Shown here in pieces: positions 2,258 to 26,754 of a stretch of DNA of 64,000 nucleotides. Position numbers and translations under genes: made by a program. Under the pieces are notes generated by a model. It was given only the letters and a program-made list of their open reading frames with translations, was not told the origin of the DNA and did not search any database. The stretch is from the NCBI GenBank assembly GCA_947648905.1, contig CANSPP010000004.1:760-64759 (forward strand). The letters are read 5' to 3'. This DNA comes from an uncultured Clostridium sp. GTDB taxonomy: Bacteria > Bacillota > Clostridia > TANB77 > CAG-508. Numbering within the stretch: the first letter of the stretch is position 1; each line of letters opens with the position of its first letter.

Positions 2258-2304
2258 TTTGTTTTCCTTTCTAATTCGAAATAGAATAGTTATATTGCTA
2301 GGCA

Positions 2305-2365
2305 AAGTTAGTTTGAAAGGCAAAGGAGCATACGTGGTGTATGTGACTGCGTTTCAAACTAACTT
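2305..2365. repeat. perfect 14-bp inverted repeat (AAGTTAGTTTGAAA / TTTCAAACTAACTT) with structured 33-nt loop between nrdD and nrdG
   Basis: seen directly; inner CATAC/GTATG sub-hairpin; plus strand of loop carries AAAGGAG-N5-GTG. Confidence 0.6.
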
Positions 2366-2397
2366 TAACGAAGCAAGATGGCTATTATCTTTCGAAT

Positions 2398-4557
2398 TTA
2401 CTCGTCGTCCTTATTATCTAAATGAATAACTCTTTCTTTAATTTCTTGAGTTCTACCCTTATTCCAGAAATTACTTCCAATATAACCACAAGTTCTTCTA
2501 GCTACATTCAATGTATCGTGATTTCTATTTCCACAGTTTGGGCAATACCATTCTAAGTCTTCATCAATTAAAATTTCTCCTGTATATCCACATTCTTGGC
2601 AATAATCTGATTTTGTATTTAATTCTGCATACATAATGTTGTCATAAATGAATTTGATTACTTGTAATACAGCAGGTAAATTGTTTTGTAAATTTGATGT
2701 TTCTACATATGATATAGCTCCACCTGGGCTTAATTCTTGGAATTCACTTTCTAATTTTAGTTTAGAAAATGCGTCTATTTCTTCAAATACAGGTACGTGA
2801 TATGAGTTTGTTATATAATCTCTATCTGTTATCCCTTCAATTTCTCCAAATCTGTCTTTTAAGCATTTTGCAAATTTATATGTTGTTGATTCTATTGGTG
2901 TTCCATACACACTGTAGTCCATATTTTCTTTTTCTTTCCATTCTTTACATTTAGCATTCATTCTCTTCATTACTTCGATTGCTAAGTCTTTTCCTTTTCC
3001 ATTGTCTGTATGGCTGTGTCCTGTCATATATTTTACACATTCATATAGTCCTGCATATCCAAGTGATATTGTTGAATATCCGCCATGTAATAAATCGTGT
3101 ATTTTTGCTCCTTTTGGTAATCTTGCTAATGCTCCATATTGCCATAATATTGGTGCTACGTCACTTGTTGCTTTTGCTAGTCTTTCGTGTCTTAGTTGAA
3201 GTGCTTGGTGACATAGTTCTAGTCTTTCGTCATATATTTTCCAGAATTTATCTAAGTCTTTTCCTGATGATAATGCAACATCTACTAAGTTTATTGTTAC
3301 AACACCTTGGTTAAATCTTCCATAATATTTTGGTTTGTTTGTTTCTGGGTCAACATATGGTGTTAAGAATGAACGACATCCCATACATGGGTAGCAGTTT
3401 CCATTTCCATTTTTGTCTTTTTTAAGTTCTTTCATTTTCTTTTCTGATATGTAATCTGGTACCATTCTTTTTGCTGTACATTTTGCTGCAAGTTCTGTTA
3501 AATACCAATATTTGCTGTTTTCGTGTATATTATCTTCTTCTAATACATATAGTAGTTTTGGGAATGCTGGTGTAATGTATACTCCTTTTTCGTTTTTCAT
3601 TCCTACTATTCTTTGCTCTAAAAATTCTTTTATTATTAATGCTAATTCTTCTTTATAGTCTTCTGTTTCTCCTAAATAGAAACATACACTTAGGAATGGA
3701 GATTGTCCATTTGTTGTTGTCATTGAGTTTATTTGATATTGGAATGTTTGAACTCCATCTTTTATTTCTTTTAGTAAATCTTCTTTTGCAAATTTCTCGC
3801 ATTGTTCTTTACTTAGTTTTCTAGCTTCATATTTCTTTAAATATATATTGTAACTATCTCTTACGAATGGGGCTAAATGTGTCATTGTTACTGTTGCACC
3901 ACCATATTGGCTAGATGTTACTGCTGTTATTATTTGTGTTGCAATTGTCATTGCTGTTAAGAATTTATGTGGTTTTTCTATCATTACACCATTTATGTTT
4001 GTTCCATTTTGTAACATATCTTCTAGGTTTATTAAATCACAATTATGTAGTGCGTTTTGTGCAAAATAATCTGCATCGTGGAAGTGGATTATTCCTTCGT
4101 CATGTGCTTTTACAATGTTTTCTGGTAATAAAAATCTTCTTGTTATGTCTGTACTTGTTATTCCTGCTAAATAATCTCTTTGTGTTGTTACTACTTTTGC
4201 ATTTTTGTTAGAATTTTCATTGTTCCAATATTCACTTTCACCTTCAATTAATTCTTTTATTGATTGGTCTGTTGTGTTTGCTTTTCTAACTAGTGCTCTT
4301 GTGTATCTATATGTTATATATTTTTTTGATAGTTGATATTTTCCCTTTTCCATCAATTTTTCTTCTATTATGTCTTGTATGTCTTCTACTAATATTCTTG
4401 GTTTTTGTAACTCTTCAATATAGTTTGTTATTTCTTTTATATCTTCTAGTGTTGCTCTTTCTTTTCTTGGTACCTCATTATTTGCTTTTTGAATTGCTAC
4501 TTTGATTTTTTCCCTATTATAATCAACTATTGTTCCATCTCTTTTTATGATTTTCAT
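2398..4557 (-). CDS. nrdD: anaerobic ribonucleoside-triphosphate reductase (class III RNR), copy 1
   Basis: ATP-cone MKIIKRDGTIVDYNREKIKVAIQKAN, C-terminal Zn ribbon CPNCGN and glycyl-radical motif RRTCGYIG; start at ATG 4557 (RBS AAAGGGGA). Confidence 0.95.
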   Translation of the reverse strand: MKIIKRDGTIVDYNREKIKVAIQKANNEVPRKERATLEDIKEITNYIEELQKPRILVEDIQDIIEEKLMEKGKYQLSKKYITYRYTRALVRKANTTDQSIKELIEGESEYWNNENSNKNAKVVTTQRDYLAGITSTDITRRFLLPENIVKAHDEGIIHFHDADYFAQNALHNCDLINLEDMLQNGTNINGVMIEKPHKFLTAMTIATQIITAVTSSQYGGATVTMTHLAPFVRDSYNIYLKKYEARKLSKEQCEKFAKEDLLKEIKDGVQTFQYQINSMTTTNGQSPFLSVCFYLGETEDYKEELALIIKEFLEQRIVGMKNEKGVYITPAFPKLLYVLEEDNIHENSKYWYLTELAAKCTAKRMVPDYISEKKMKELKKDKNGNGNCYPCMGCRSFLTPYVDPETNKPKYYGRFNQGVVTINLVDVALSSGKDLDKFWKIYDERLELCHQALQLRHERLAKATSDVAPILWQYGALARLPKGAKIHDLLHGGYSTISLGYAGLYECVKYMTGHSHTDNGKGKDLAIEVMKRMNAKCKEWKEKENMDYSVYGTPIESTTYKFAKCLKDRFGEIEGITDRDYITNSYHVPVFEEIDAFSKLKLESEFQELSPGGAISYVETSNLQNNLPAVLQVIKFIYDNIMYAELNTKSDYCQECGYTGEILIDEDLEWYCPNCGNRNHDTLNVARRTCGYIGSNFWNKGRTQEIKERVIHLDNKDDE

Positions 4558-4615
4558 TTCATTTTCCCCTTTCGTTTTTTCTGCTATCATTATATCTCTA
4601 TTTTTATTATTAACT

Positions 4616-13265: not shown

Positions 13266-14601
13266 ATGGAGAAAAATATGAAAGATTTTTTTATTATATT
13301 AATTATGAAAATACTAAACATTATTCTAAAAATCTGTAGAAAAAAAGGTGGTAACTTCTTAGGAAAAATAGCATTTGACTGGGACCCTAATATATTCAAA
13401 TACTTCAAAGTAACTTGTCCTGTTATCGCAGTTACTGCAACAAACGGAAAAACTATGACAAATAATGCAATTGGCTATGTTTTTAAAACAGCTGGAAAAA
13501 AAGTAATTAGCAATACAGAAGGAAACAATATGGAAACTGGCATACTTTCAACTTTATTAAAAAGCTGTAGTTTAACAGGAAAAATCAAAGCTGACTATTT
13601 AGTTTTTGAAGTTGACGAAGGCTATGTACCTGTTGTATTTAAAGACTTAAGACTAGACACTTTAGTTATACTAGATTTCTTCCGTGACCAATTAGATAGA
13701 AATGGAGAGGTTGAATCTTTAATATTAAAAATCAATGAATTCTTAAAAACTTACACTGGCAACCTTGTATTAAACAATGACGACCCCAATGTTGCAAGAC
13801 TTCGGACAAGCCAATCCAGATAATCACAACGTTTATTATTTCAGTGTAGAAAAATACGAATATGCAACAAAAGAACTAAAAGAAGCAGGAGAAGGAAAAT
13901 TCTGTCCATTCTGTAATACACGTATAGAATATGAATATTATCAATATTCTCATATTGGTAAATTTAAATGTCCTAATTGTAATTATGGAGATAATGAAAT
14001 TTATAAATTGGCAACAAATGTTGATTTAAAAAATAGAACATTTAGTGTTGATGATGTAACCTATAAAATTAGATTTAACAGTATCTATAACATTTATAAT
14101 TTTATTGCTGTTATATCTTGTGTAAGTCTATATTCCATAGAAACAGAAATAGTACAAAAAGCTTTATCTACATTTATTTTAAATAATGGTAGATTAGAAG
14201 AATTAGAAATAAAAGGCGTTCCTACAATAATAAATTTGGCAAAAAACCCAACTGGATGTAATGTAAGCCTTCGTATTTTAAATGAAGATGATGACAAAAA
14301 AGAATTGTTATTTGTTTTGAATGATAATTTAGCAGATGGTCACGATGTTTCTTGGATTTGGGATATTAATTTCGATGATTTAAATAATGTTTCAAGAATT
14401 GTAACTGCTGGAACAAGAGCTTATGATATTGCAATTAGAATTAAAACTTCTGGATTTGATGCTAGCAAAATTGAACCTTTTCTAAATTTAAAGGAAGCTG
14501 TTGATAATTTCTACAAAACTGATGTTAAAAAATATGTTATTGCAAATTATACTTCTCTTCAACCTACTAGAAAAGAAATTTTAGCTTTAAATTCTAAATA
14601 A
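13266..14601 (+). CDS. murT: lipid II isoglutamine synthase Mur-ligase subunit MurT; reading frame interrupted at 13803 (surplus C before GGA)
   Basis: AVTATNGKTMT Mur ligase P-loop, ...NNDDPNVARL then frame +1 continues GQANPDNHNVYYF, Zn ribbon CPFCN...CPNC and DUF1727; matches S. aureus MurT DDPFVSRLKIASDTIVYY. Confidence 0.85.
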
Positions 14602-14649: not shown

Positions 14650-15396
14650 ATGAAAGAATTAAAAATATTATACCTATACCCAGATATATTAGAACTATAT
14701 GGAGATTTTGGAAATATACAAGTTTTAAAATATAGATTAGAAAAACGTGGAATACAAGCCACTATTGTACCATATTCAATTGGCGATGTAGCCCCTGACT
14801 TTTCAAGTTTCGACTTAGTATTTGCAGGTGGTGGTGCTGACCAAGAGCAAGGTATTTTATCAGAAGATTTAATTAAGTATAAAGAAAGCATAAAAGAAGC
14901 TGTTGATAATGGTGTGTTCTTCTTGCTGATTTGTGGTGCTTATCAGCTATTTGGAAAATATTATAAAGGAGTTGAAGGAAATATTATTCCTGGCTTAGAA
15001 GTTTTTGATTATTATACAGAAGCTATAAATGATAGAAAACAAAGATGTATTGGTAATGTTGTAATAAATAGCAATTTAAATGGTAAAGAGACTAAAATTA
15101 TTGGTTTTGAAAATCATGGCGGACAAACTTTTGATGTTGATACCTCTTTTGGCGATGTACTTTTTGGTAATGGTAATAAGTTTGGAGATACTAAAGAAGG
15201 TTTCTTTTTAGAAAATGTTATTGCAACTTATTTACATGGACCTCTTCTTTCTAAAAATCCAGAACTTGCTGATTACATTATAAAGTATTGTTTAGATAGA
15301 AAATATGATGAAAATGTCGTTTTAGAGCCACTAGATGACATTTTTGAAAATCTTTGTAGAGAGCAATTGTTAGAAAGGTTCTTAAACCAAAAATAA
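14650..15396 (+). CDS. gatD: lipid II isoglutamine synthase glutaminase subunit GatD (CobB/CobQ-like GATase)
   Basis: 248 aa, MKELKILYLYPDILELYGDFGN..., partner of murT. Confidence 0.85.
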   Translation: MKELKILYLYPDILELYGDFGNIQVLKYRLEKRGIQATIVPYSIGDVAPDFSSFDLVFAGGGADQEQGILSEDLIKYKESIKEAVDNGVFFLLICGAYQLFGKYYKGVEGNIIPGLEVFDYYTEAINDRKQRCIGNVVINSNLNGKETKIIGFENHGGQTFDVDTSFGDVLFGNGNKFGDTKEGFFLENVIATYLHGPLLSKNPELADYIIKYCLDRKYDENVVLEPLDDIFENLCREQLLERFLNQK

Positions 15397-15439: not shown

Positions 15440-16147
15440 TCAATAGAATACAACCACATTCTGCAGCTGAATTACTGGCACTTCGGCAATTTTGTTGTTC
15501 TTAGCAAAAGTAAATGATACAAATCCGCCAAGCAGGTGCTTATCCCTATCTACAATAATCGGCTTTTGAAAGTTCTTATATTTAGAATAGAATTTTGCTA
15601 CCTTTTCATACTTGGTCTGTTTGTGACTTGTTTTAGTATCTTTTCGTTCAGACTTATACTTTACTCCTTCTTTTCCACCTCTAATTTTATCTGTCCTCAT
15701 TCCTCTAACCCATATATCGTCTTCTTCGCTATACAAGTGAGAGAATTTTGTGTCATACCGTAGAGCTTCATTTTGAGCCATACATTCTTTTGCAAACTGA
15801 GAACGTTCTTTTTGTCCTTCAATTTCCAAATATTTTGAATGCTGTTCTGGCATAAGGTTTGCTTTACGTTCATTGCATTCTTTGCAATATGGAATAAGAT
15901 TGTTTGTAATGTCTGGTCCACCATAATCTTGTGGAATAATATGGTCAACTGTCATCATATTACTCTTAGTTTTCTGGTTGCAGCATTTACAAATATTTTT
16001 TCCATATATTGCATAAGTCAAATCTTTCATAAGAGATTTAAAACCTACATCAAATCTCATATATAAGATTCCATCTTCGATAAAAACTACCCTTTTCTGG
16101 CCTCTTTCATCGTACCGAGTAAATTGTTCTGGTAATATAATATTCAT
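15440..16147 (-). CDS. HNH endonuclease domain protein (foreign codon usage)
   Basis: CKCCNQKTKSNMMTVDHIIPQDYGGPDITNNLIPYCKECNERK HNH motif; GC-richer codons incl. two in-frame CGG Arg codons (15758-15760, 16115-16117). Confidence 0.8.
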   Translation of the reverse strand: MNIILPEQFTRYDERGQKRVVFIEDGILYMRFDVGFKSLMKDLTYAIYGKNICKCCNQKTKSNMMTVDHIIPQDYGGPDITNNLIPYCKECNERKANLMPEQHSKYLEIEGQKERSQFAKECMAQNEALRYDTKFSHLYSEEDDIWVRGMRTDKIRGGKEGVKYKSERKDTKTSHKQTKYEKVAKFYSKYKNFQKPIIVDRDKHLLGGFVSFTFAKNNKIAEVPVIQLQNVVVFY

Positions 16148-16235
16148 TATATTTACCTCCTATCTATTATGTTTACATTATATAATGTATCTCATATATC
16201 TGTCAATAAAAATGTCGAAATATGTCAACTTTTAT

Positions 16236-18362
16236 TTACAAATGCATTACTCTTTGCTTTATTTCTTTTGTTTTTCCAACATTCCAGAAATTCTCTCCTA
16301 AATATCCGCAGGTCCTTCTTACTACTGTCATTTTATTATGGTCTTTATTTCCACAATTTGGGCATTCCCACTCATTATCTTTGTTTATTATTATTTCGCC
16401 ATCAAATCCGCACTTATGGCAATAATCTGACTTTGTATTAAATTCAGCATATTGAATATTGTCATAAATAAATTGTACTACTGTTTCTAATGCTTTTATG
16501 TTTTTGTTCATATTTGGTATTTCAACATATGAGATAGAACCACCTGTTGAGATTTTTTGGAATTCACTTTCAAATTCTAATTTTGCAAATGCATCGATTT
16601 CTTCTCTTACATCTACGTGATATGAATTTGTATAATATCCTTTATCTGTTATGTCTTTTATTGTTCCAAATTTTTCTTTATCAATTCTTGCAAATCTGTA
16701 ACATAAGCTCTCTGCTGGTGTTCCATATAGCGCAAATCCTATGTTTGTTTCCTTTTTCCATTTTTGTGTTGTTTCTTTTAAATAATTCATAACTTTAAGT
16801 GCAAACTCGCGTCCTTCTTCTGTTGTGTGAGATACACCTTTTACTAGTTTTGTAAGCTCATATATTCCAATATATCCAAGTGACATTGTAGAATATCCGC
16901 CATATAATAACTTGTCTATTTTTTCACCTTTTTTCAATCTTGCTAATGCTCCATATTGCCAGTGAATTGGGCTTATATCAGAACTTGTTCCAAGTAGTGC
17001 ATAATGTCTACACATTAATGCTTCTTTGCAAAGTTCCAATCTTTCATCTAATAGTTTCCAGAATTTTTCTTCGTCACCATCTGCTATAATTCCTATTTGT
17101 GGTAAGTTGATGCTTACTACACCTTGATTAAATCTTCCTTCAAATTTGTATTTTCCATTTTCGTCTTTCCAAGGTGATAAGAAACTTCTACATCCCATTG
17201 GGCTAAATACGTTTCCTTCGTAGTTTTCACGCATTTTTTTAGCTGATATATAATCTGGATACATTCTTTTTGCTGAACATTTTACTGCAAGTTTTGTTAG
17301 GTAGTCATATTCCCCACCTTTTAAATTGTTGAATTCATCTAATACATATACAAGCTTTGGAAATGCTGGTGTTACATATACTCCTACCTCGTTTTTTACT
17401 CCTTCATATCTTTGATTAAGGATTTCTTCTATTATCATTGCATTTTCTTTGATATATGGGTCGTCTTTTTCTAAATGTAAGAATAATGTTACAAATGGAG
17501 ATTGCCCATTTGTTGTCATTAGTGTATTTATTTGATATTGCATTGTTTGTATTCCTGCTTTTAATTCTGCTTTTACTCTTTCTTCCACTAATTCCTCTAT
17601 CATTTCTTTTGATAGTTGTTTTCCGTGTTTTTCTTCAAGCTCTTTTTTATATTTATTATAGCTTACTCTTAGGTATTTTCCTAAATGTATCATATCTATT
17701 GATTGTCCGCCATATTGGTTACTTGCCACTGTTGCAATTATTTGTGTTGTTACTGTACAAGCCACTTGGAAACTTTTTGGACTTTCTATCATTTTCCCAT
17801 ACATTACAGTTCCATTGTCTAGCATATCACCTATGTTTACTAAACAGCAATTAAATATTGGTTGTATAAAATAATCTGCATCGTGGAAATGTAAAATTCC
17901 GTCTTCATGTGCTTTTGATATCTTTTCTGGTAGTAGCATTCTTTTTGTTAAATCTCTTGAAACTTCTCCTGCTATGTAATCTCTTTGTGTTGATGCTAAC
18001 ATTGTGTTTTTGTTTGAGTTTTCTTCTGCTAGTTCTTTGTTTTCGTTTCTTAAAAGGCCTAATATAGATTCGTCTGTTGTGTTTTGTTTTCTTACTAATG
18101 CTCTTGTGTATCTATATACTATGTATCTTTTTGATAGTTCATATCTTTGTATTTCCATTAGTTTTTGTTCTATTATGTCTTGTATGTCTTCTACTAATAT
18201 TCTTTTTTTGCCCATTTCTTCAATATAGTTTATTATTTCTTTTATTTCTTCTTTTGTGGCTCTCTCTTTTGGTCTTACTTCTTGGTTTGCTTTTTCGATT
18301 GCTATTTTGATTTTTTCTCTATCAAAATCTACTACTTGTCCATTTCTTTTTATAACTTTCAT
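16236..18362 (-). CDS. nrdD: anaerobic ribonucleoside-triphosphate reductase (class III RNR), copy 2
   Basis: 708 aa, ~60% identical to copy 1, ATP-cone MKVIKRNGQVVDFDREKIKIAIEKAN, RRTCGYLG glycyl radical motif, CPNCGN. Confidence 0.95.
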   Translation of the reverse strand: MKVIKRNGQVVDFDREKIKIAIEKANQEVRPKERATKEEIKEIINYIEEMGKKRILVEDIQDIIEQKLMEIQRYELSKRYIVYRYTRALVRKQNTTDESILGLLRNENKELAEENSNKNTMLASTQRDYIAGEVSRDLTKRMLLPEKISKAHEDGILHFHDADYFIQPIFNCCLVNIGDMLDNGTVMYGKMIESPKSFQVACTVTTQIIATVASNQYGGQSIDMIHLGKYLRVSYNKYKKELEEKHGKQLSKEMIEELVEERVKAELKAGIQTMQYQINTLMTTNGQSPFVTLFLHLEKDDPYIKENAMIIEEILNQRYEGVKNEVGVYVTPAFPKLVYVLDEFNNLKGGEYDYLTKLAVKCSAKRMYPDYISAKKMRENYEGNVFSPMGCRSFLSPWKDENGKYKFEGRFNQGVVSINLPQIGIIADGDEEKFWKLLDERLELCKEALMCRHYALLGTSSDISPIHWQYGALARLKKGEKIDKLLYGGYSTMSLGYIGIYELTKLVKGVSHTTEEGREFALKVMNYLKETTQKWKKETNIGFALYGTPAESLCYRFARIDKEKFGTIKDITDKGYYTNSYHVDVREEIDAFAKLEFESEFQKISTGGSISYVEIPNMNKNIKALETVVQFIYDNIQYAEFNTKSDYCHKCGFDGEIIINKDNEWECPNCGNKDHNKMTVVRRTCGYLGENFWNVGKTKEIKQRVMHL

Positions 18363-18422
18363 TCTACATTTCCCCCTTCTAAGTTTTACTTCGTTTATTA
18401 TATATTAACTTTAGTTACTTTC

Positions 18423-18438
18423 TGTTGCAAAAGCAACA
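18423..18438. promoter_or_regulatory. palindromic operator TGTTGCAAAAGCAACA ~60 bp upstream of nrdD copy 2
   Basis: identical 16-mer at 24658-24673; 5-N6-5 (CRP/FNR-like geometry). Confidence 0.55.
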
Positions 18439-18584
18439 AGCAAACTTATTTTTTTCATAAGTTTGCTTGTTTGTATGTTTTGATGTTTTATTACATTTTT
18501 ATTACAAATTTAATTCTTAAATTATAGTATTAACACTAAAAAACAAAATTTTATTCATAGCATTCTTTTATTCTCATAATACTA

Positions 18585-19751
18585 TTAAAATTTAATTCTA
18601 TTAAATTCATCATACAGTTCAATTAGATAATCACATACTTCATTGTTTCTTATAATTACATTTTCCGCGATTTTACTGCAGTAATTACAATTCAAACAAT
18701 TTCCTGTACAATGATCATTTTTAAAAAAATTAATAAATCCATCTAATTTTTGATTATCAATATATATATGTCTAGGATATCTTCTTTCACATCCCAAACC
18801 TCTTACTGTACGTATTTTTTCAACTATTTCATTTTTAGACATATTCTTTACTTTATTATCATTTATTGTTAGTTCTTCTTTAGAATTGCTCCAACCGTGC
18901 CCTTGAATTAAATCCAATAAATTTCCATTATATTTTCTTTCACTATACGCTTTTACTCTTTTTATAATCTCATCAGTTGGAAAATCTCTTTCAGTAATTT
19001 TAAAATGTTCTATCCCAATATTTTCATATTCTTTAATATCTTCTGGTCTAATCCAAGGCGACTTTATGTATTCCTCTAAATTCTTTAATTCATATTCTTG
19101 ACATTTGTATAAACACCAATCTGCATAATGTTCTTTATCCTTATTCATTGAATTTGATGCATGTGATAAAGCTGCTGTATGTGTATGAATATATGGACAA
19201 TTTTTTAAACAACTATTTGTCATAAGTAATTCTATTTTCGCTTTTTTTAGATTATCAACCATATATTTTAAAGTTTTAAAGTCTCTATTAATTTTCACAA
19301 AATCTACACAAACATAATCTGCTCCCATTTCTTCCCAAAATTTAGCTTTTTCAAAACTATCTATACAGGCAAATGTTGAAATTCTAACTGTAAAACAGTC
19401 ATAATATTTTTTTATTATTTGTAACAAAAAAGGATTTGTTACCGTTAAAGCATTAACGCCTATTTCTTTTAAGTAATCTAGAAATTTTCTAACATTTTGT
19501 TGCCATTCTTCACTTTGCTCCTTATTAGCAAGACAAGCTCCATTTAATAAATAATTAAATTTTATATTATTTTCTCTAACTTTCTTTACATGCCTCTCGA
19601 GCATAGTTTTATCTATATTTTTTAATGTATTTGATGGTCTTCCTCCCCCAACATAATCTTGTTGTAATTTTCCGTAAACTTCATATACTGGATAATCTTT
19701 TAACTTATCTATTAGTTCGTCATCAAAATTAGTAGCTACTGATAATTTCAT
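18585..19751 (-). CDS. uncharacterized protein, weak peptidase-U32-like TIM-barrel features, Cys-rich C-terminus (CTGNCLNCNYC)
   Basis: start at ATG 19751 (MKLSVATNF...) with RBS AAAGGAG; ...VTNPFLLQIIKKYYDCFTVRISTFACIDSFEKAKFWEEMGADYVCV resembles U32 core. Confidence 0.4.
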   Translation of the reverse strand: MKLSVATNFDDELIDKLKDYPVYEVYGKLQQDYVGGGRPSNTLKNIDKTMLERHVKKVRENNIKFNYLLNGACLANKEQSEEWQQNVRKFLDYLKEIGVNALTVTNPFLLQIIKKYYDCFTVRISTFACIDSFEKAKFWEEMGADYVCVDFVKINRDFKTLKYMVDNLKKAKIELLMTNSCLKNCPYIHTHTAALSHASNSMNKDKEHYADWCLYKCQEYELKNLEEYIKSPWIRPEDIKEYENIGIEHFKITERDFPTDEIIKRVKAYSERKYNGNLLDLIQGHGWSNSKEELTINDNKVKNMSKNEIVEKIRTVRGLGCERRYPRHIYIDNQKLDGFINFFKNDHCTGNCLNCNYCSKIAENVIIRNNEVCDYLIELYDEFNRIKF

Positions 19752-19764
19752 AATTATCACTCCT

Positions 19765-20811
19765 TTATAATATTTTCTTACATTTCTTTATAAAATTTCT
19801 ATTTGTTTTTCTATCTTGAACTGCAATTCTAAAATGAATATTCTTTTCTTCATCTTCTATAATCATTAACGAAATATCGTTTTTATTGAATTTTTCTATT
19901 ATCTCATAACTTAATTTAGTTTTAGAAAACAAAATATTTGATTCACTTGGATAAAATTCTATATTAAGTTTTCTTAGGTTTTTTTCTATATTCTTACGTT
20001 CTTTCATTATTAATTTTATATTCTTTTTGTAATTATTACTTAAAAGGATTTTTTTAGCATACTCACATGAAATCCCAGAAACTTCATTAACAGTTATATT
20101 TTCTTCATATATTTTCTTAAACTTTCTTGAGCAAATCATATATCCTATTCTTAAACCAGCAATTCCATAAGCCTTTGATAATGATTTTATAACTATAATA
20201 TTGTCTGGCATCTCTATTTTAGACAAACTGCTTTTATTGGAAAATTCAATTGCTGACTCGTCTACAATAACATATACATTTACATTTTCAGCAATATATT
20301 TTATCTCTTCGTTACTCATAAGCATTCCTGTTGGATTATTTGGATTGCATATATAAATCATTTTTGTATCCGCGTCAACACTTTTTATTATGCCTTCTGC
20401 ACTCACTTTTACGTTTTCTTTCATATATACTCTTTTAGTACTTCCGTTCATTGCAGTAACTGCATATTCTGCTTGATTAAATGTCAAAAACGGTGTGACT
20501 AGATTTCCTGAATTTTTAAACAAAATTTTTATTATATTTTGAAGAATGCCATTTGCACCTGCTCCTATAATAATTTCTTTTGTTTTAATATCTTGAATTG
20601 TCTTAATTGTCTCTCTTAATTCTTTAACTATATAATGTGATGGATACTCAGAAAGATTTGAATAATTAATTGTAAATTTTGGATATTTATATAGATACTT
20701 ACCAGATAATGTCATATCAATCTGTTTTGTTTCATAGTTAGTATAATCATCTAAAAAATTGCGCTTAGATATTTGATATGCCTTATTTCTTAAGCCTGAT
20801 TGTATATACAT
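19765..20811 (-). CDS. PLP-dependent aminotransferase, class I/II (HisC/CobD-like)
   Basis: 348 aa, SLSKAYGIAGLRIGYMI PLP-lysine region. Confidence 0.75.
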   Translation of the reverse strand: MYIQSGLRNKAYQISKRNFLDDYTNYETKQIDMTLSGKYLYKYPKFTINYSNLSEYPSHYIVKELRETIKTIQDIKTKEIIIGAGANGILQNIIKILFKNSGNLVTPFLTFNQAEYAVTAMNGSTKRVYMKENVKVSAEGIIKSVDADTKMIYICNPNNPTGMLMSNEEIKYIAENVNVYVIVDESAIEFSNKSSLSKIEMPDNIIVIKSLSKAYGIAGLRIGYMICSRKFKKIYEENITVNEVSGISCEYAKKILLSNNYKKNIKLIMKERKNIEKNLRKLNIEFYPSESNILFSKTKLSYEIIEKFNKNDISLMIIEDEEKNIHFRIAVQDRKTNRNFIKKCKKIL

Positions 20812-22501
20812 TTCTTTTACCTATCCCTACATCTGTTATGTGTTCATCAACATTTTTCTCTATATAAAATCCATTTTCTTTAACTATTTGGTTTATTTCT
20901 TCTTTTGATAGCAATACCATAGGTGGTCTATTTTCAACTTCATACACACCCTTTCCTAGATATTTTAAATCTTCTGTAATTATATCATTTGTAAATACTG
21001 ATAAAATTACATATCCATTCTTTTTTAATATCCTATTAAATTCCTTAATAGTATTTATAAATTCTATTTTAGTAGTTGCATTATGAATAACTCCAATTGA
21101 CAATATAATATCGAAAATTTCAGAAGATGTAGGTATATTGTCCATATTGGCTTGTACAAATTCAATATTTTCTTTTTCCAAAGAAAATGCCATTTCTTTA
21201 TATTTATCAACCGCTAAAACATTATATCCGTGGCTATTTAAATATCTTGAATATCTTCCTCCTCCACATCCGATATCTATTACTTTATCTATTTTTCTTT
21301 TATTACTTATTTCTTCTATTTCTTTTACTATATATTGAGAAACTGGTTTCTCTGTAAATTTTTTTGCGACTTCTTCATCTTGCCAAAATATTGTTTTTTC
21401 CTCTTTATTTTTTACTGTATAAGTACTATTGCAAATACTGGTTTCAATTACATTCATTCCTACTTTTTGCATTGTATCTTTACAAATTTCCTTTTGCTCT
21501 TCATTTTTTACTATTGCCATAAAAGCTGGTCCTACTGATGATAATGTTAAAAATTCACAGCAATTATTCTCATACAATTTTCTTAGTTCATTAGCTTTTT
21601 CTATTGTCTTTTCATATACAAATGAGCAGTTTTCAATACTTCCCATATTAAATCTATAATCAAATACAATATCTGCTAACTCTCTAATATTTCCATTGCA
21701 AAGTCCTGGTAATGCTTTATGTAATAAATTATATGCAATTTTTTCTGCATATTTATCACCTGTTCTCTTAAACTTCCACAAATTTTCTTCTTCTAATTTC
21801 ATTAATTCTTCTGCACTTTTAGGATTAAAATCATTTGGAATTGCTATTAATACTTTTGCATCATATTTCAATTTTGCTATTGTTGTTGCTTTGCCTGCAA
21901 TAATTATAATTCCTTCTTCAGTTAATCCGTTTGTAGCGCCTCCACCAATACATTGAACCATCTTCAGTTCTTCTTCATTTTCATCTGATATTTCTTCTCC
22001 ATGATTACTAGCTAAGAATTTTATCAAATCTTTGTTAGCTATAGGACATCCATATAATTCATTAATAGCTACCGCTACTGCCGTTATTGTAGAACTACTA
22101 GATCCAAATCCACAGTGCTTTATAACTTTAGAGGAATCTACATCTATTTTTAAAGACGGATTTACATTTAATATTTTAGTCATAATTCTATATGCATGCT
22201 TTATTAGTACTTTTCTTTGTGTTCTATCTGAAATCTCAAGTAACCCACCTGCTTCAGAAGTAATTTCTATTCCTACTTTAATTTTTATATTTAATGAAAT
22301 TACTACTTCACCTGGTGTAAATATTAAATCGTTATTATAGCAAACAGCAGCTGGATTTATGGCCATTGCGTCCATCCTACATGGATATTCTATATTTATC
22401 TTGTTGTACTTCAACTTTAAATTTTCTTCTATTGTATGAGGATATTTACTAAAAATATATCCTGCTTTAAATGTTGGAAATCTATCTACCACTTTTACCA
22501 A
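20783..22501 (-). CDS. fusion protein: GHMP-kinase-like domain (beta-RFAP-synthase/PduX-like) + class I SAM-dependent methyltransferase
   Basis: N-terminal HCGFGSSSSTITAVAVAINE GHMP motif; C-terminal VIDIGCGGGRYSRYL SAM motif I; start uncertain (non-ATG, GTG 22492 has RBS). Confidence 0.6.
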   Translation of the reverse strand: MVKVVDRFPTFKAGYIFSKYPHTIEENLKLKYNKINIEYPCRMDAMAINPAAVCYNNDLIFTPGEVVISLNIKIKVGIEITSEAGGLLEISDRTQRKVLIKHAYRIMTKILNVNPSLKIDVDSSKVIKHCGFGSSSSTITAVAVAINELYGCPIANKDLIKFLASNHGEEISDENEEELKMVQCIGGGATNGLTEEGIIIIAGKATTIAKLKYDAKVLIAIPNDFNPKSAEELMKLEEENLWKFKRTGDKYAEKIAYNLLHKALPGLCNGNIRELADIVFDYRFNMGSIENCSFVYEKTIEKANELRKLYENNCCEFLTLSSVGPAFMAIVKNEEQKEICKDTMQKVGMNVIETSICNSTYTVKNKEEKTIFWQDEEVAKKFTEKPVSQYIVKEIEEISNKRKIDKVIDIGCGGGRYSRYLNSHGYNVLAVDKYKEMAFSLEKENIEFVQANMDNIPTSSEIFDIILSIGVIHNATTKIEFINTIKEFNRILKKNGYVILSVFTNDIITEDLKYLGKGVYEVENRPPMVLLSKEEINQIVKENGFYIEKNVDEHITDVGIGKRNVYTIRLKK

Positions 22502-22544
22502 CTCCTTTTATTTGCTAATTCTTTGTTAAATTTTTCTGCAAACT

Positions 22545-23144
22545 TTAACTATCAATGTTATTTCCTTCGATTACATTTTCTCTATACCACTTTGCAAATT
22601 GGTCTTTTGCATCTCCCCAAAAAGTTGATTCATATTCATAATCTTCTTCTCGTAACTCGCTTAAAGTTTTACTTTCTCCATCTGGTATATAAAATTTGTC
22701 ATGCCATCTTCCGCGAGTTCCTTTCGGTTCAAATGCTATCTTTCCTGTTCCACCTCCTGAAAAAACAATAGGTTCATTATTTGGTTCACAATATGCAAAA
22801 CAGTGTTCTATTCTTGCTTTTCTATTTTTTTCATTTTTAAATAGTTCCAAAAACTTTTCTACCCCTATCTGTTTATCAAAATACGCATTATATGGCCCTG
22901 GCAATCCTCCTAAAGCTTCTATGTATAATCCTGTATCTGATTTTAGAACTGAACATCCTAATTTATTTGCTGCATATTTTGCACTAAATGCAACTACTTC
23001 TGCACAAGTTTTAGCTTGTGTCTCTAAAATTTCAAAATCTGGATTTACAATTTCTATGTTAAATCCATATTTTTTTGAAAAAAACTCATTAGCTTCTTCA
23101 ACTTTATGCTGATTTGTTGTTAAGTAAATTAATTTCCTTTTCAT
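22545..23144 (-). CDS. non-canonical purine NTP pyrophosphatase (Ham1/RdgB/ITPase family)
   Basis: 199 aa, LTTNQHKVEEAN ... Ham1 motifs. Confidence 0.8.
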   Translation of the reverse strand: MKRKLIYLTTNQHKVEEANEFFSKKYGFNIEIVNPDFEILETQAKTCAEVVAFSAKYAANKLGCSVLKSDTGLYIEALGGLPGPYNAYFDKQIGVEKFLELFKNEKNRKARIEHCFAYCEPNNEPIVFSGGGTGKIAFEPKGTRGRWHDKFYIPDGESKTLSELREEDYEYESTFWGDAKDQFAKWYRENVIEGNNIDS

Positions 23145-23722
23145 TATCTTTCATCCTCTCTTTCCTTCACATTTGATTTTATTATAATGTCTTCCATAGT
23201 TTCTATGAAACTATCAGTATTATCATTTTGCAAATACACGCAAGATTTTATTGCATATTGCTCTAATTGCTCTAATCCCATATCTTTTTCTTGTTGTAAA
23301 ATCATCTCAAACTGCTCATCTGTCAAATTAATTTTTTCTCTTCTTTGATAATTATTTTTTAATTGTTCAAATGGCGCTGCTATATATATTATTTGTGGAT
23401 TTTCTATTGAAAATCTATTTGCAATAAATTTAATCCCATTCAAAGACCTACTACCTGTTATTATAGTTATATCTTTATCTTGTCCTTTGAATAATCTTTC
23501 TATTTGCTTGCACAATATTATATCTGTAAAATTTTCACCATATTTTTCTTCTCCATCTTTAATCCATTCACTTAATGATATATTAGGTGAAAATATTTTA
23601 TGAGCTTCTCTTATTAATGGTCCTAAATCTATATGCTCCACATTATAATCTTTTTTTAACTTATTAACTATATATGTTTTTCCAACACCATGCGGTCCTA
23701 CCAAAAAGAACACATTTTTCAT
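23144..23722 (-). CDS. P-loop NTPase, nucleoside/nucleotide-kinase-like
   Basis: 192 aa, FLVGPHGVGKTYIVNKL Walker A; stop overlaps downstream ATG (TAATG). Confidence 0.6.
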   Translation of the reverse strand: MKNVFFLVGPHGVGKTYIVNKLKKDYNVEHIDLGPLIREAHKIFSPNISLSEWIKDGEEKYGENFTDIILCKQIERLFKGQDKDITIITGSRSLNGIKFIANRFSIENPQIIYIAAPFEQLKNNYQRREKINLTDEQFEMILQQEKDMGLEQLEQYAIKSCVYLQNDNTDSFIETMEDIIIKSNVKEREDER

Positions 23723-23979
23723 TTTACCACTCCATTCTGTTTATTATTATAAATTATCCTGTGTATCCTTTTGGGTTTTTCTTTTGTTCCTACTTTCTAA
23801 TTATATGTTGGAATTATATTATCTTTTAATTGTTTTTCATTTTCATACCTTCATTTGCATTATAGCACCGTTTATCCTCATTGTAAATATATTTTTTAAA
23901 ATTATTATCATTTCATTATGTACAACAAAAATTACACTATAAAAAGTACAAAAATGCCAGTATTATGACTGACATTATT

Positions 23980-24612
23980 CTAATATATTTTTAATGTAAT
24001 TTTATTTTTATTTTTCTCAATAAATCCATCTTCTTTAAGAAGCTTCATTTCACGCATCATAGCACTTCTATCAACACTCAAATAATCAGCCAAATCAGTT
24101 AAAGAAAAAGGCAACGTAAAAGTCTTATTCAACGTCCTTGTAGAAAGAAGCGTAAAATATCCAAGTAGTTTCTCACGAATGGTTCTCTTTGTTAATAGCT
24201 CCACACGCATATTTAAATCTATAACTTTGTTTAAAATTAATTCTGGTAAATTCTCAGTTAGGAAATTGTGAAATTTACAATTGCTCCTGCATTTAGTATG
24301 TATACTATCATATATATATATTAAAACTTCACATTTTTCACGAGCTTCTACTAGTAACTCGTTGTTTGTTGTTACGGTATAAAACACTTCACCAAAGATA
24401 TCGTTTTTGGATAGATGCTCTACTATGGTTCTGTTTCCGTTTAAATCATAACGTACCAAATCTGCATTTCCACTTATCAGTATGCAAAATTGATTTCTTT
24501 TTTGTATGTATGTTGTTATTACTTCGTTTTTTGAAAAAGTTTTCTTTTGTACTCTGTGACAGTTATGTTCAAAGTCGTTTATGAAACTGTCCATATCAAA
24601 ATTCAAATTCAT
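23980..24612 (-). CDS. Crp/Fnr family transcriptional regulator
   Basis: cNMP-binding N-domain and C-terminal HTH (TLPFSLTDLADYLSVDRSAMMREMKLLKEDGFI); start set to ATG 24612 (RBS AAGGG); track start is GTG inside operator. Confidence 0.8.
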   Translation of the reverse strand: MNLNFDMDSFINDFEHNCHRVQKKTFSKNEVITTYIQKRNQFCILISGNADLVRYDLNGNRTIVEHLSKNDIFGEVFYTVTTNNELLVEAREKCEVLIYIYDSIHTKCRSNCKFHNFLTENLPELILNKVIDLNMRVELLTKRTIREKLLGYFTLLSTRTLNKTFTLPFSLTDLADYLSVDRSAMMREMKLLKEDGFIEKNKNKITLKIY

Positions 24613-24642
24613 TTTTATCAACCCTTTTTCAATTCTGAAGTT

Positions 24643-24673
24643 ATTATATAACACTTTTGTTGCAAAAGCAACA
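24643..24673 (-). promoter_or_regulatory. promoter (-10 TATAAT, -35 TTGCTT) of Crp/Fnr gene overlapped by palindrome TGTTGCAAAAGCAACA (24658-24673)
   Basis: minus strand TTGTTGCTTTTGCAACAAAAGTGTTATATAAT. Confidence 0.5.
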
Positions 24674-24817
24674 ATTCCAATGTTAAAAAAGTTGGCTTTT
24701 AAGAAAATCTAAACCAAATCCTCTTGATAAGAGTTTTAAGAATACTTAACCTCTATACTGATGAATAGTTATAAAAATTTAATGAAAAAAATAATCCTTA
24801 GTAACTCGATATAAGGT

Positions 24818-26596
24818 TTAATTCAGCCATTCTTTTACAATTCTGTTGAAGTTTTCCATTGTCTCTTTATTATATTCATACTCATGGTTTTCAACTTTCT
24901 TAAATATTTCTAAAGAATAATATGCTTTTTCATCAACATAATCTTCATTGTTAATTCCTATATATTTTTTATCTTCTTCTGAAAATAAGTCTTCTATTGA
25001 TAAATTGATATTTTCATTTTCCCTGTTTGTTCCATCAATAAACTTTATATCATTAAAATCAACTAATAGTTTATTAGTTAAGATTTTATATTGTCTTCTT
25101 CCTTCTGTATCTTGATCAATAAGAATTTTATATTTATATCCCCAACCAATTAAAATTGAAATAATATTATGGATATTAGTTACACTAGTAGATGGAATAA
25201 TATTGTATTCTTTATTATATTGTTTTTGCATTAGAAAAGCCTTTAAGTAATTGTAATCAGAAATACCTTCTGTAATTATATTTACTTTTTTACTATCTAT
25301 AGCTGTGAAACTATATCTCATATTCATTCCTATCGCAGTTAAAATTGGAGTAATTGTTTCTTTTTTAGAAGTCATTTTATGCGGTAGTGAATAATATTTA
25401 TTTCCAATATTACTATTGCCCAACTTATCTTTTATAACTATTCGAGTTCTATATAATTTATCTTGATAAATCATAGTTGGTAACTGAGTAGTATATACAA
25501 TTTGGTTATCTTTTGAAGTAAAATCTTCAAATAGATTTAATATTTCTTTTTGAGCATTAACATGTAAATATACCCCAGGTTCATCTAATAAAATAAAATA
25601 ATTTTCTATATCATATTTTTGAGTTTTAGCTAGGAGTTGTATGTACATATTTAAATACCATTTTAATCCATTACTTCTTTCACTTAAGTTTAAATATTTA
25701 CTATTAGTTTTAACCACAAAATTTAATGATTCTGTATCGAAGTTAACTCTAAGAGTTACATCTTCTTGCTTATAAAATTTGTTAAATTCTTTTATAATTG
25801 TTCCAATTTTGTTATTTATTTCTTCTACAAAATTATATTTATCATCATCTTCAGATAATTTCCAATATCCCATTAAACCTTCCAAATCCATCCCAATAGT
25901 TTTTAATAAATATTTTAGCATTTGTTTTGATTGTGTATTATCAGCTAAATATTTTCGAGTATATTTTGTTCTAAGCTCAATATTATCTAAAAGAATAAAT
26001 TGTGGAAATAATGAATGAATATTTATTAAATATTCCCTGCATTCTTTCAAATACTGAATAAATTCTTCATAACTCGAATTTCCTTCCAGCAACAATATTA
26101 TGTTATCTATATAAGTGTAATTTATAAACACTTTTGTTTCAGCATTGTTGATCATTTTGATAATATTATTGAATTGATTTTTCTTATTTTCATCATTCAA
26201 ATAAATATTTTTATTTAATTCATTCATCTTTTTTCTATTTTTTTGAAAGTTCTTATTATTACTTATAATTTCTGACAAACCACCATCAATATCTAAATCA
26301 TACTGGTCATTAATTGTAATAATAGTTTCTTTTGTTGATTTATAAATATTTTTTTCGCTCCTATATGGAACTAGAACTAATGATACTAATGGTTTCTTCA
26401 TATTGTTCTTGTTATTATTTTTAAAATAGTCAATGTCATTTATTCCTGATAAATCTAGTTTTCCAATTGCTTGTATTAAATTACTTTTTCCAGATTCATT
26501 TTTTCCAATAATTGTATTGATGTTTTCTAAATCTATCCTGTTATTTTCCTCTGCAAATGATTTGAAATTTTGTATTTTAACTGATTTTACTTTCAT
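24818..26596 (-). CDS. OLD-family nuclease: N-terminal ABC/AAA_15-type ATPase + C-terminal TOPRIM (candidate antiphage defence, single-gene class)
   Basis: Walker A GKNESGKSN, Walker B ILLDEPGVYLH, TOPRIM VNIITEGISDYNYL ... ILIDQDTEG; start at ATG 26596 (MKVKSVKIQNFKSF) with RBS AAAGGAG; extremely AT-rich. Confidence 0.8.
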   Translation of the reverse strand: MKVKSVKIQNFKSFAEENNRIDLENINTIIGKNESGKSNLIQAIGKLDLSGINDIDYFKNNNKNNMKKPLVSLVLVPYRSEKNIYKSTKETIITINDQYDLDIDGGLSEIISNNKNFQKNRKKMNELNKNIYLNDENKKNQFNNIIKMINNAETKVFINYTYIDNIILLLEGNSSYEEFIQYLKECREYLINIHSLFPQFILLDNIELRTKYTRKYLADNTQSKQMLKYLLKTIGMDLEGLMGYWKLSEDDDKYNFVEEINNKIGTIIKEFNKFYKQEDVTLRVNFDTESLNFVVKTNSKYLNLSERSNGLKWYLNMYIQLLAKTQKYDIENYFILLDEPGVYLHVNAQKEILNLFEDFTSKDNQIVYTTQLPTMIYQDKLYRTRIVIKDKLGNSNIGNKYYSLPHKMTSKKETITPILTAIGMNMRYSFTAIDSKKVNIITEGISDYNYLKAFLMQKQYNKEYNIIPSTSVTNIHNIISILIGWGYKYKILIDQDTEGRRQYKILTNKLLVDFNDIKFIDGTNRENENINLSIEDLFSEEDKKYIGINNEDYVDEKAYYSLEIFKKVENHEYEYNKETMENFNRIVKEWLN

Positions 26597-26754
26597 AAAT
26601 TGCTCCTTTATTTTTCTATTATTATTCCTCCGCATTATTATTTTCTTCTAATTTTTCTCTTTTTCGTCTTACAATAATTTTTCTTTATCTAATCTACTGA
26701 TATCTAAATATTTATGATCTAGTACATCTATTTTACTTATAACTGATTTTCCTA

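Follow-up and report, generated by a model that had tools for sequence, protein, structure and literature searches.

ForT, PyfQ and beta-RFAP (RHP) synthase, from the biosynthesis of formycin, pyrazofurin and methanopterin, are decarboxylative C-glycoside synthases that depend on PRPP; they convert an aromatic carboxylate and PRPP into a C-ribotide, CO2 and PPi. PduX and CobD are the L-threonine kinase and the threonine-phosphate decarboxylase of cobamide synthesis. In ForT, the tight turn His99...Ser104 and Thr106 bind the pyrophosphate and 5'-phosphate of PRPP, and Arg19, in the first strand, and Arg135 are essential in PRPP binding (PMC8183095). Known U32 proteins hydroxylate tRNA or rRNA pyrimidines, with methyltransferases acting next on the product (PMC6599085, PMC5727448), and the CX6CX15CX3/4C motif of U32 hydroxylases (CX6CX16CX38C in UbiU) binds a [4Fe-4S] cluster (PMC6747719). 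Here, we compare these systems with a gene cluster on the minus strand (18585–23722) of a 64,000-nucleotide stretch of DNA from an uncultured Clostridium sp., referred to below as the window. As with PduX and CobD, a gene for a GHMP-fold protein stands beside one for a HisC/CobD-family PLP enzyme, accompanied by a P-loop kinase.

A conserved five-gene module of gut Clostridia and Bacilli

The cluster consists of five co-directional, overlapping open reading frames, all recovered where the original prediction had placed them, and its domain calls for all five proteins are borne out by Pfam. In order of transcription, the genes encode a P-loop kinase (Kin), a Ham1 pyrophosphatase, a fusion of a GHMP-fold domain with a methyltransferase (MT), a HisC/CobD-like PLP enzyme (AT) and a U32-like protein. 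Their coupling is as tight as had been claimed, with the ATG of Ham1 overlapping the stop codon of Kin and AT overlapping the fusion gene by 29 nt. The best promoter-like match of the region (11/12; 23859–23887, minus strand), TTTACA-N17-TATAAT with a TG extension (extended −10), lies upstream of Kin, the first gene. The leader of ~135 nt between this site and Kin has no match in Rfam, and riboswitch control of the operon was rejected, the only hit at gathering thresholds being a SAM riboswitch at 1640–1744. A terminator-like hairpin with 15 perfect base pairs (18435–18471) separates the U32-like gene from nrdD copy 2 and probably marks the end of the operon; given the short T-run of the minus strand, its action as a terminator is a prediction. 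The GC content of the cluster (26.9%) is close to that of the window (29.1%), and therefore the "unusual composition" attributed to the cluster applies to the gene set and not to the bases, which are ordinary.

Beyond the window, we compared 62 related loci from gut Clostridia and Bacilli, with near-identical contigs counted separately, and tblastn located all five genes in nearly every locus with enough flanking sequence. The hosts include Clostridia, Bacilli and "Tenericutes" MAGs, and the fusion proteins are 56–84% identical. The genes occur together in at least nine different orders and in unrelated, often mobile contexts, elsewhere including integrase/resolvase/methylase islands, with flanks that vary even between the closest relatives. 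Because they have stayed together through at least nine rearrangements, the five genes are not chance neighbors; instead of mapping to unrelated housekeeping families without conserved co-occurrence, they form a real functional module, grouped far beyond chance. By contrast, the proposed tie to nrdD copy 2 does not extend past this lineage, to which its adjacency to the module is restricted; nrdD copy 2, Crp and OLD, all present only in this lineage, were accordingly rejected as module members. The OLD nuclease that adjoins the module here matches PADLOC Old.

Several further genes accompany the module at related loci. Nucleotide enzymes are represented by an NT5C-like nucleotidase, NUDIX, a dNK/Tmk-like kinase, NDK and a YfbR-like HD nucleotidase. 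A stand-alone DAHP synthase lacking a regulatory domain and scoring above the curated cut-off (364.7 versus 335) is found at 14 loci, within the module or next to it, a PaaK-like aryl-acid ligase at 6, and a GreA-like paralogue at 25. In one variant (locus L070), Kin, Ham1, GHMP and MT are retained, AT and the U32-like protein are absent, and the GHMP domain is fused to a domain of PrnB, a tryptophan-rearranging heme enzyme. No phosphoribosyltransferase other than the GHMP candidate is present in the conserved core.

Other associations were considered and set aside. Self-resistance through an aminoacyl-tRNA synthetase, brought up by hisS near the module here and by TyrRS/MetRS-like genes flanking locus L001, was rejected because the hisS of locus L013 lies 6 kb away among infC, rplT and recA and such synthetases do not recur across loci. 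A phage origin was rejected as well, with relatives of the GHMP domain absent from IMG/VR and INPHARED and phage relatives found for the U32-like protein only; matches of AT in the viral and phage sets are host-like hisC genes in unannotated records. The same applies to plasmid carriage, PLSDB having yielded no match.

The five proteins and their nearest relatives

None of the five proteins reached a curated equivalog cut-off among the best 25 of 47 NCBIfam matches. Kin (23144–23722, minus strand; 192 aa) matches Pfam AAA_17 and, weakly, adk and UMP-CMP kinases (adk, 25.8 versus a cut-off of 168; PDB matches at E 1e-5 or weaker). The hallmarks of NMP kinases are nonetheless present, namely Walker A, the NMP-binding (S/T)G-x-x-x-R motif and the core and LID arginines, and invariant residues of the family comprise G9, G14-K15 (Walker A GPHGVGKT), D32-x-G34...R38 (DTGPIxR), G90-x-R92...G96-I97 and R128. 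In loci L004 and L024, Kin is fused to Ham1.

Ham1 (22545–23144, minus strand; 199 aa) belongs to the Ham1/ITPase family of NTP pyrophosphatases (Pfam Ham1p_like, 2.3e-32; 112.8 versus a threshold of 22.5) and falls short of the TIGR00042 equivalog (123.8 versus 145.35). It aligns over its full length with PH1917 (E 1.7e-23), and the catalytic motifs of the PH1917/MJ0226-type house-cleaning ITPase/RdgB enzymes, T-x-N-x-x-K-x-x-E near the N terminus, E-x-Q and D-(S/T)-G-L...PG-x-Y, are kept. However, the GFGYDP and SHRG motifs of PH1917 read GRWHDK and TFWG in the window copy, and all 29 module-associated copies compared carry G-x-WHD-x and F/Y-WG (x variable) in place of the canonical hypoxanthine/xanthine-contact motifs GFGYDP and SHR. 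The Ham1 of L070 is 65% identical and has the same RWHD/YWG pocket. Unlike the house-cleaning enzymes, module Ham1 is encoded in an operon or as a fusion with a kinase, and an additional, ordinary Ham1 is encoded near the module in loci L022 and L043. Judged by sequence, module Ham1 is a specialized subfamily with an altered base pocket.

The fusion gene (20783–22501, minus strand) probably starts at 22492, because its homologs are 569 aa long. Its N-terminal domain (aa 4–366; 21404–22492; GHMP_kinases_N, 7.8e-9) has the two-domain fold, the Gly/Ser-rich phosphate-binding loop (motif II) and motif III of the GHMP superfamily, and ForT structures are its top three matches in Foldseek. The domain shares with ForT, PyfQ and beta-RFAP synthase the (Q/K)H-x-GFGS-x-(T/S)ST loop and the GPA motif III, at ~14–17% identity. 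The phosphate loop KHCGFGSSSST corresponds to QHSGFGSKTST of ForT, and in the HMM alignment LPQHSGFGSKTST of ForT is paired with ILKHCGFGSSSST of the GHMP family, in which H129, G131, G133, S134 and S136 are invariant. By alignment, the PPi-binding loop of the family has the same pattern as the H99...S104...T106 loop that in ForT binds the PPi and 5'-phosphate. An invariant R42 in the middle of a strand (E34-47) recalls R19 in strand 11-24 of ForT, an equivalence mapped by position only. At about the position of ForT G134-R135, again mapped by position, the family has A-S-N-H-G-E-E and no Arg, and this N-H/Y-G-E-E is similar to "SYGEL", the motif by which homoserine kinase binds Mg, which leaves room for an ATP-dependent kinase. 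The score of the window protein against BetaRFA-P_synth (NF040726) is 27.7 bits versus a cut-off of 328, and for distant members of the family this is the best model (2.2e-15 and 56.6 bits for P0323). The domain further differs from the ForT-type synthases in being fused to MT, or to PrnB in relatives; in its partners (Ham1, an NMP-kinase-like protein, and U32-like and HisC-like proteins, where the formycin cluster has Pur-type enzymes and methanopterin synthesis has pterin enzymes); and in its occurrence in gut Firmicutes, as opposed to actinomycetes and methanogens.

The C-terminal domain of the fusion (aa 367–572; 20783–21403) is a class I SAM methyltransferase (Methyltransf_11/23/25, E ~1e-16) that matches no specific family, with PDB sequence and profile searches returning only uncharacterized structural-genomics methyltransferases. 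In loci L065, L070 and L076, GHMP and MT are split and MT is a separate gene.

AT (19765–20811, minus strand; 348 aa) belongs to the broader fold-type I Aminotran_1_2 family (2.8e-31; 109.4 versus 19.7), scores below both curated cut-offs (hisC, 172.7 versus 276.55; CobD, 154.6 versus 290.55 bits), and has histidinol-phosphate aminotransferases as its closest solved structures.

The U32-like TIM-barrel protein (18585–19751, minus strand; 388 aa) has homologs of the same length that begin with MKLSV, the mechanically called frame extending to 19760. It has the U32 fold, with the Peptidase_U32 match (2.5e-11) confined to aa 89–151. Ten of its 14 cysteines (73, 129, 148, 181, 185, 217, 348, 352, 355 and 358) are invariant among 39 homologs and are spaced as CX3C...X31...C and a C-terminal CX3CX2CX2C. 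Unlike UbiU/UbiV, TrhP and RlhA, it lacks CX6CX15CX3/4C and carries the C-terminal motif in addition. It matched no NCBIfam model among the best 25 of 47 matches, and this, with the missing motif, leaves the canonical RNA or quinone hydroxylase originally predicted unsupported. Its only phage relatives are the uncharacterized RB69 gp50 family, within the RB69 arabinosyl-5hoC cluster; gp50 is labeled a "sugar or heterocycle reductase" from fold matches only (PMC13326640, Table 1). For a putative prephenate-dependent hydroxylation by this protein, the dedicated DAHP synthase in 14 loci is indirect support only.

A candidate nucleotide pathway and its alternatives

None of the described pathways fits the five-gene set, and we found no paper on the module or this gene combination; a search on AfhE/HY126 and on RFAP-synthase/U32 in gut bacteria returned nothing relevant except PMC13326640. 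With no equivalog, PADLOC system or publication to account for it, the original view that the set makes or modifies a small molecule linked to a nucleotide, by none of the known pathways, stands, as do the domain calls and the tight coupling. A nucleotide theme is indicated by the motifs of Kin, by the catalytic motifs and changed base contacts of Ham1, and by the accessory nucleotide enzymes. A ForT-like step is suggested by the Foldseek ranking, the PPi loop, the Arg of the first strand, the BetaRFA-P_synth relatives and the lack of another phosphoribosyltransferase, and an aromatic precursor by the DAHP synthase, the PaaK-like ligase and the replacement of AT and the U32-like protein by PrnB in L070.

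We consider it evenly balanced between right and wrong that the operon is a self-contained pathway making and controlling a non-canonical ribonucleotide. In the scheme that we infer, in which the substrates, the order of steps, the use of PRPP rather than ATP and the product are all predicted, the HisC-like enzyme and the U32-like Fe-S protein would start, independently of O2, from an aromatic amino acid or another shikimate-pathway metabolite and turn it into an aromatic or heteroaromatic carboxylate. The GHMP domain would couple this acid to PRPP with release of PPi and CO2, yielding a ribonucleoside 5'-monophosphate, probably C-linked, which the fused MT would methylate. Kin would then form the diphosphate, and the cellular NDK, or the dedicated NDK of one variant, the triphosphate, which Ham1 with its rebuilt pocket would return to the monophosphate, thereby limiting or timing entry into RNA or DNA. 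The product could be an antimetabolite, a defense molecule, a signal or a cofactor. Weighing against this pathway are the low BetaRFA-P_synth score, the kinase-like NHGEE and the U32-like protein without the hydroxylase Cys motif; in addition, Kin and Ham1 acting on one nucleotide would create a futile cycle unless regulated.

The alternative that survives best, although we judge it unlikely, is the one originally proposed, in which GHMP would use ATP to phosphorylate a small molecule and the HisC-like enzyme would process the phosphorylated product, in the manner of PduX and CobD or of ThrB. The resulting phospho-amino-alcohol or amino acid would then be attached to a nucleotide or derived from one. 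The adjacency of the two genes and the SYGEL-like motif fit this logic, but the specific analogy is not supported: no PduX model occurs among the best 25 of 47 NCBIfam matches, AT scores below the CobD cut-off and lower for CobD than for hisC, and none of the 62 related loci compared contains cobamide or pdu genes. Moreover, motif II has the His of ForT and not the Gly-Ser of kinases, consistent with the structural ranking; GHMP is independent of the PLP enzyme, because L070 keeps it with Kin, Ham1 and MT in the absence of AT; and it is hard to see which substrate would link a kinase to the PrnB domain fused to it.

Less probable still is a T-even-like remodeling of the canonical pool as chemical defense, in which Ham1 would convert an NTP to the NMP, the U32-like protein, MT and AT would modify the base of this NMP, and Kin would rephosphorylate it, the modified NTP being incorporated or serving as an antiviral chain poison or signal. 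Phages with hmC and 5hoC follow the same logic, with an NTP pyrophosphatase, modification of the NMP and an NMP kinase, and the relationship to the RB69 cluster points the same way. So do the OLD nuclease beside the module here and the mobile islands elsewhere, a relative that carries a HEPN_Toprim_N fusion and lies on a TrwC/ParA contig, the GreA-like paralogue, and a PDB match to the Ham1-like KomB from a solved complex, which we take to be part of an anti-phage system. However, this reading leaves the GHMP domain without a role, and that domain was not found in IMG/VR viral contigs, INPHARED phages or PLSDB plasmids. In PADLOC 2.0 no system matched the five genes, apart from a generic match of the MT domain to mad2 and matches weaker than 1e-3, and the DAHP synthase and PrnB associations suggest that the building block is aromatic rather than a canonical base. 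Finally, RNA modification of the TrhP/RlhA plus TrmR/CmoB type by the U32-like protein and MT (hydroxylation, then methylation), with the remaining genes as mere neighbors, is very improbable: the hydroxylation precedents (PMC6599085, PMC5727448) and a weak CmoB match of MT (2.8e-8) are set against a U32-like protein that lacks both the Cys motif and, among the best 25 of 47 matches, an NCBIfam model, the fusion of MT to GHMP, and the unity of the five genes through their rearrangements.

Returning to the self-contained ribonucleotide pathway, we tentatively extend it to a mobile operon of anaerobic gut Firmicutes that may join PRPP and an acid derived from shikimate or aromatic amino acids into a novel aryl or heteroaryl C-nucleotide. 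The U32-like Fe-S enzyme, of a new clade, and the HisC-like enzyme would be an O2-independent counterpart of PrnB, the triphosphate would be checked by Ham1 and would serve as an immune molecule or as an antimetabolite directed at polymerases, and gp50 would take part in phage nucleotide hypermodification; as a whole, this proposal is possible but doubtful. To our knowledge, C-nucleotide synthases of the ForT type have been described only from methanopterin synthesis and a small number of antibiotic pathways in actinomycetes. If such an enzyme is indeed widespread among anaerobes of the human and animal gut, this would suggest that the microbiome makes a nucleotide-like metabolite that has gone unrecognized, possibly an antiviral or antibacterial one. 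Because the operon is compact, with five genes behind one promoter, heterologous expression is directly feasible. The operon would also offer testable functions for three enzyme groups that are poorly understood, namely a U32-like clade that RB69-type T4-like phages share, the Ham1 subfamily whose specificity pocket has been rebuilt, and a branch of the GHMP fold between kinases and PRPP-dependent glycoside synthases.

Layout and conservation of the five-gene operon

The five open reading frames of the original prediction are present, all on the minus strand, and Pfam searches bore out every one of its domain calls. The operon comprises genes for an NMP-kinase-like P-loop protein (Kin; 23144-23722), a Ham1/ITPase-family NTP pyrophosphatase (Ham1; 22545-23144), whose ATG overlaps the Kin stop codon, a GHMP-fold domain fused to a class I methyltransferase (MT) (20783-22501; the start is probably at 22492, because the homologs are 569 aa long), a HisC-like PLP enzyme (AT; 19765-20811), whose gene shares 29 nt with the fusion gene, and a U32-like protein (18585-19751). 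The region's best promoter-like site (23887-23859, minus strand; 11/12 matches, extended -10) lies just upstream of Kin, and a 15-bp hairpin (18435-18471) lies between the U32-like gene, the last of the operon, and nrdD copy 2; the operon leader matched no Rfam family. With a GC content of 26.9% vs 29.1% for the window, the base composition of the cluster is ordinary. In the NCBIfam search (best 25 of 47 matches), none of the five proteins reached a curated equivalog cut-off, and no model matched the U32-like protein.

The operon is part of an inserted block (OLD-Crp-module-nrdD2-HNH; 15440-26635) that interrupts housekeeping genes, with recJ-relA-MBL-hisS on one side and gatD/murT-rsmF-suf on the other. 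An OLD-family ATPase/TOPRIM nuclease (24818-26635, minus strand; PADLOC Old, 4.8e-25) is encoded two genes upstream of the operon, separated from it by a Crp/Fnr regulator gene (23980-24654), and the same OLD-Crp/Fnr-operon arrangement is found at 100% identity in the related locus L018. On the other side of the operon, the block contains nrdD copy 2 (16236-18362, minus strand), followed by an HNH endonuclease gene (15440-16147); this copy is 57.5% identical to the other full-length nrdD of the window (2398-4590, minus strand), and its adjacency to the module is not conserved elsewhere. Outside the block, murT (13266-14601, plus strand), upstream of gatD (14650-15396), is seemingly split by a frameshift, with Mur_ligase_M (13266-13823) and MurT_C (13777-14601) in different overlapping frames. 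The sole Rfam match in the window is a SAM riboswitch (RF00162; 1640-1744, minus strand; 81.9 bits).

The GHMP-MT fusion has more than 500 homologs in gut metagenomes, nearly all unnamed. We collected 62 related loci outside the window by exact look-up and by genome and metagenome scans and queried them with the five window proteins using tblastn. All five genes were found in every sufficiently flanked locus except L016, where Kin has diverged too far to be recognized by tblastn and a Ham1 gene was not found within 10 kb. At least nine gene orders were observed, including the window arrangement (Kin-Ham1-GHMP_MT-AT-U32), Kin-U32-[MT2]-GHMP_MT-AT-Ham1, GHMP_MT-U32-Kin-[five extra genes]-AT-Ham1, and GHMP_MT-AT-U32-[NT5C-like]-Kin-M23-Ham1. 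Kin and Ham1 are fused into a single protein of 389-398 aa in two loci (L004 and L024), GHMP and MT are encoded separately in three (L065, L070, and L076), and the flanking genes are dissimilar even among the nearest relatives of the module, which in L076 and L077 is surrounded by integrase, resolvase, and DNA-methylase genes. According to the record titles, the hosts are uncultured Clostridia, Bacilli, and 'Tenericutes' from human, mouse, rabbit, and deer gut. Because the five genes co-occur across related loci in varied orders, flanks, and fusions, the alternative allowed for in the original prediction, namely housekeeping genes that are unrelated and show no conserved co-occurrence, is rejected. 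A chance neighborhood is excluded, and the five genes are a functional unit.

The GHMP domain and its putative nucleotide-handling partners

In Foldseek searches with the AF2 model of the GHMP domain (pLDDT 90.8), the top three matches were structures of ForT, a PRPP-dependent C-glycoside synthase (E 4e-16 to 7e-15), followed by the best kinase (E 7e-14) and homoserine kinase (E 6e-13). In the family profile alignment, the GHMP phosphate loop ILKHCGFGSSSST pairs with LPQHSGFGSKTST of ForT, whereas homoserine kinases carry GSGLGSSAA at this position. ForT binds the pyrophosphate and 5'-phosphate of PRPP through His99-Ser104 and Thr106, and its residues R19, T106, and R135 are essential (PMC8183095). 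The residues invariant in the GHMP family include H129, S134, and S136, as well as R42, which, matched by position only, lies in the middle of the first long strand, as does ForT R19. Counting against a ForT-like reading, the family has an invariant N-(H/Y)-G-E-E similar to SYGEL, the Mg-binding motif of homoserine kinase; mapped by position, G134-R135 of ForT falls at roughly this place. When 1.84 billion representatives were searched exhaustively, only 193 clusters of GHMP-domain relatives were recovered, the most distant of which had BetaRFA-P_synth as the best model, with scores far under the cut-off. Distant stand-alone relatives (30-38% identical) in loci L078 (8238-11510) and L074 (1412-3887) adjoin an opposite-strand 453-aa ORF without assigned function, and L078 also has a SLOG/LDcluster4 gene nearby.

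The MT domain is a generic class I methyltransferase in Pfam, NCBIfam, and PDB searches. Kin displays the motif pattern of adenylate/UMP-CMP-type NMP kinases (Walker A GPHGVGKT, DTGPIxR, GxRxxxGI, and a conserved Arg). Ham1 can be aligned with PH1917 over its full length and retains the catalytic motifs, but its base-contact motifs are replaced (GFGYDP by GRWHDK and SHRG by TFWG); a replacement of this kind, G-x-WHD-x and (F/Y)WG, occurs in all 29 module-associated copies compared. Divergent Ham1 paralogs in L022 and L043 (31-39% identical to the module copy) and the outlier Ham1 of L065 have neither the module nor the canonical base-contact motifs. The nearest relatives of AT are histidinol-phosphate aminotransferases and CobD, with scores under both cut-offs.

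The U32-like protein, the PrnB variant, and accessory genes

The U32-like protein (AF2 model, pLDDT 89.3) has 10 invariant Cys, which include an additional CX3CX2CX2C at the C-terminus and are not spaced like the CX6CX15CX3/4C of UbiU/V-type Fe-S hydroxylases (PMC6747719). Among phages, it has relatives only in the RB69 ORF050c/gp50 family (222 T4-like phages, 26-30% identity), with which it has six Cys in common; RB69 gp50 is encoded within the arabinosyl-5-hydroxycytosine cluster. The RB69 protein (locus L007, 5977-7146) has the Cys triad and C-terminal Cys cluster of the U32-like protein, is flanked by gp51, an HAD phosphatase, and gp48, the 5hodCMP synthase, and is assigned no role in the published pathway. 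This link, together with the mobile and defense-island contexts of the module, would fit a phage-style remodeling of the canonical nucleotide pool or chemical defense; however, such a function appears unlikely, given that it leaves the GHMP domain without explanation and that PADLOC matched no known defense model to the five-gene operon. RNA modification by the U32-like protein and MT is highly improbable, considering that the former lacks the expected Cys motif, MT is fused to GHMP, and the five genes are conserved together.

The most telling variant of the module was found in L070, in which a PrnB domain is fused to a GHMP domain (1745-3925; GHMP 45% identical) and accompanied by Kin (35% identical), Ham1 (65% identical, its pocket likewise RWHD/YWG), a separate MT, and NDK, with neither AT nor a U32-like gene. 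Besides NDK, the PrnB-GHMP gene has a NAPRTase_N-like and a CTP_transf_like gene as neighbors. Another PrnB-GHMP fusion (L073, 10001-12652), encoded on a TrwC/ParA plasmid-like contig, has an N-terminal HEPN_Toprim_N domain; next to it are a YfbR-like nucleotidase and the remnant of a Ham1. The wider family has Kin, Ham1, GHMP, and MT as its invariant core, for which AT+U32 and PrnB seem to be alternative front ends. In the reaction of PrnB-type heme enzymes, tryptophan is rearranged to a pyrrole and loses its carboxylate. In strict anaerobes, the place of the heme enzyme may plausibly be taken by AT+U32, because U32 enzymes are anaerobic substitutes for O2-dependent oxygenases (PMC10990095, PMC11574389).

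All ORFs of the loci were clustered and recurrent clusters were annotated (counts are loci, near-duplicate contigs included). The accessory genes encode a GreA-like paralog (25 loci), a cytoplasmic M23 metallopeptidase (17), a short, regulator-less class I-beta DAHP synthase (14; 364.7 vs 335 bits, passing the curated cut-off), a second methyltransferase (13), an NT5C-like nucleotidase (11), a NUDIX hydrolase (9), a set of PaaK-like aryl-acid ligase, GT2, and two alpha/beta hydrolases (6, five of which also have a dNK/Tmk-like kinase), a DapDC-like decarboxylase with a second aminotransferase (2), and a radical SAM enzyme (2). None of these genes occurs in the window, the operon of which is therefore the minimal version. 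The M23 proteins, unusual in being cytoplasmic, lack a signal peptide and keep HxxxD and HxH; some are fused to Kin, and M23 domains adjoin or are fused with the NMP-kinase-like gene in L022 (10017-11201), L016 (13891-15111), and L052 (14409-15095). Directly downstream of the module in L004 (16064-21704), a cluster of ThiF, JAB, an 82-aa protein, aminotransferase, ATP-grasp, pyruvate kinase, and Amidoligase_2 has the appearance of an amidoligase or ubiquitin-like conjugation system.

A predicted pathway for a non-canonical nucleotide

Judged by sequence, gene context, and predicted structure, the operon likely encodes a pathway dedicated to a nucleotide outside the canonical set. Because the core contains two nucleotide-only enzymes, a probable NMP kinase and an NTP pyrophosphatase whose base pocket is remodeled, and no conventional phosphoribosyltransferase, the GHMP domain would create the nucleotide. 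The building block would be aromatic and derive from the shikimate pathway, as suggested by PrnB and also by the PaaK-like ligase and the dedicated DAHP synthase, which is unregulated. In the simplest account, the GHMP domain would act in the fashion of ForT, converting PRPP and an aromatic carboxylate to a nucleotide, which the fused MT would methylate; Kin, along with NDK where present, would raise the phosphorylation state, and Ham1 would return the triphosphate to the monophosphate. We give this specific succession, from ForT-like nucleotide creation through methylation and phosphorylation to control by Ham1, an even chance. The GreA-like, NUDIX, and nucleotidase accessories may protect the producer against a polymerase-directed nucleotide analog.

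In its probable key step, the operon is similar to known C-nucleotide pathways, and in the pairing of Ham1 with a kinase, to house-cleaning and T-even logic. It belongs to no curated family or described pathway, given that the equivalog tests failed, no defense model matched, and no publication describing this gene combination was found. We rate it as a likely nucleotide-analog biosynthetic operon with a new combination of enzymes.
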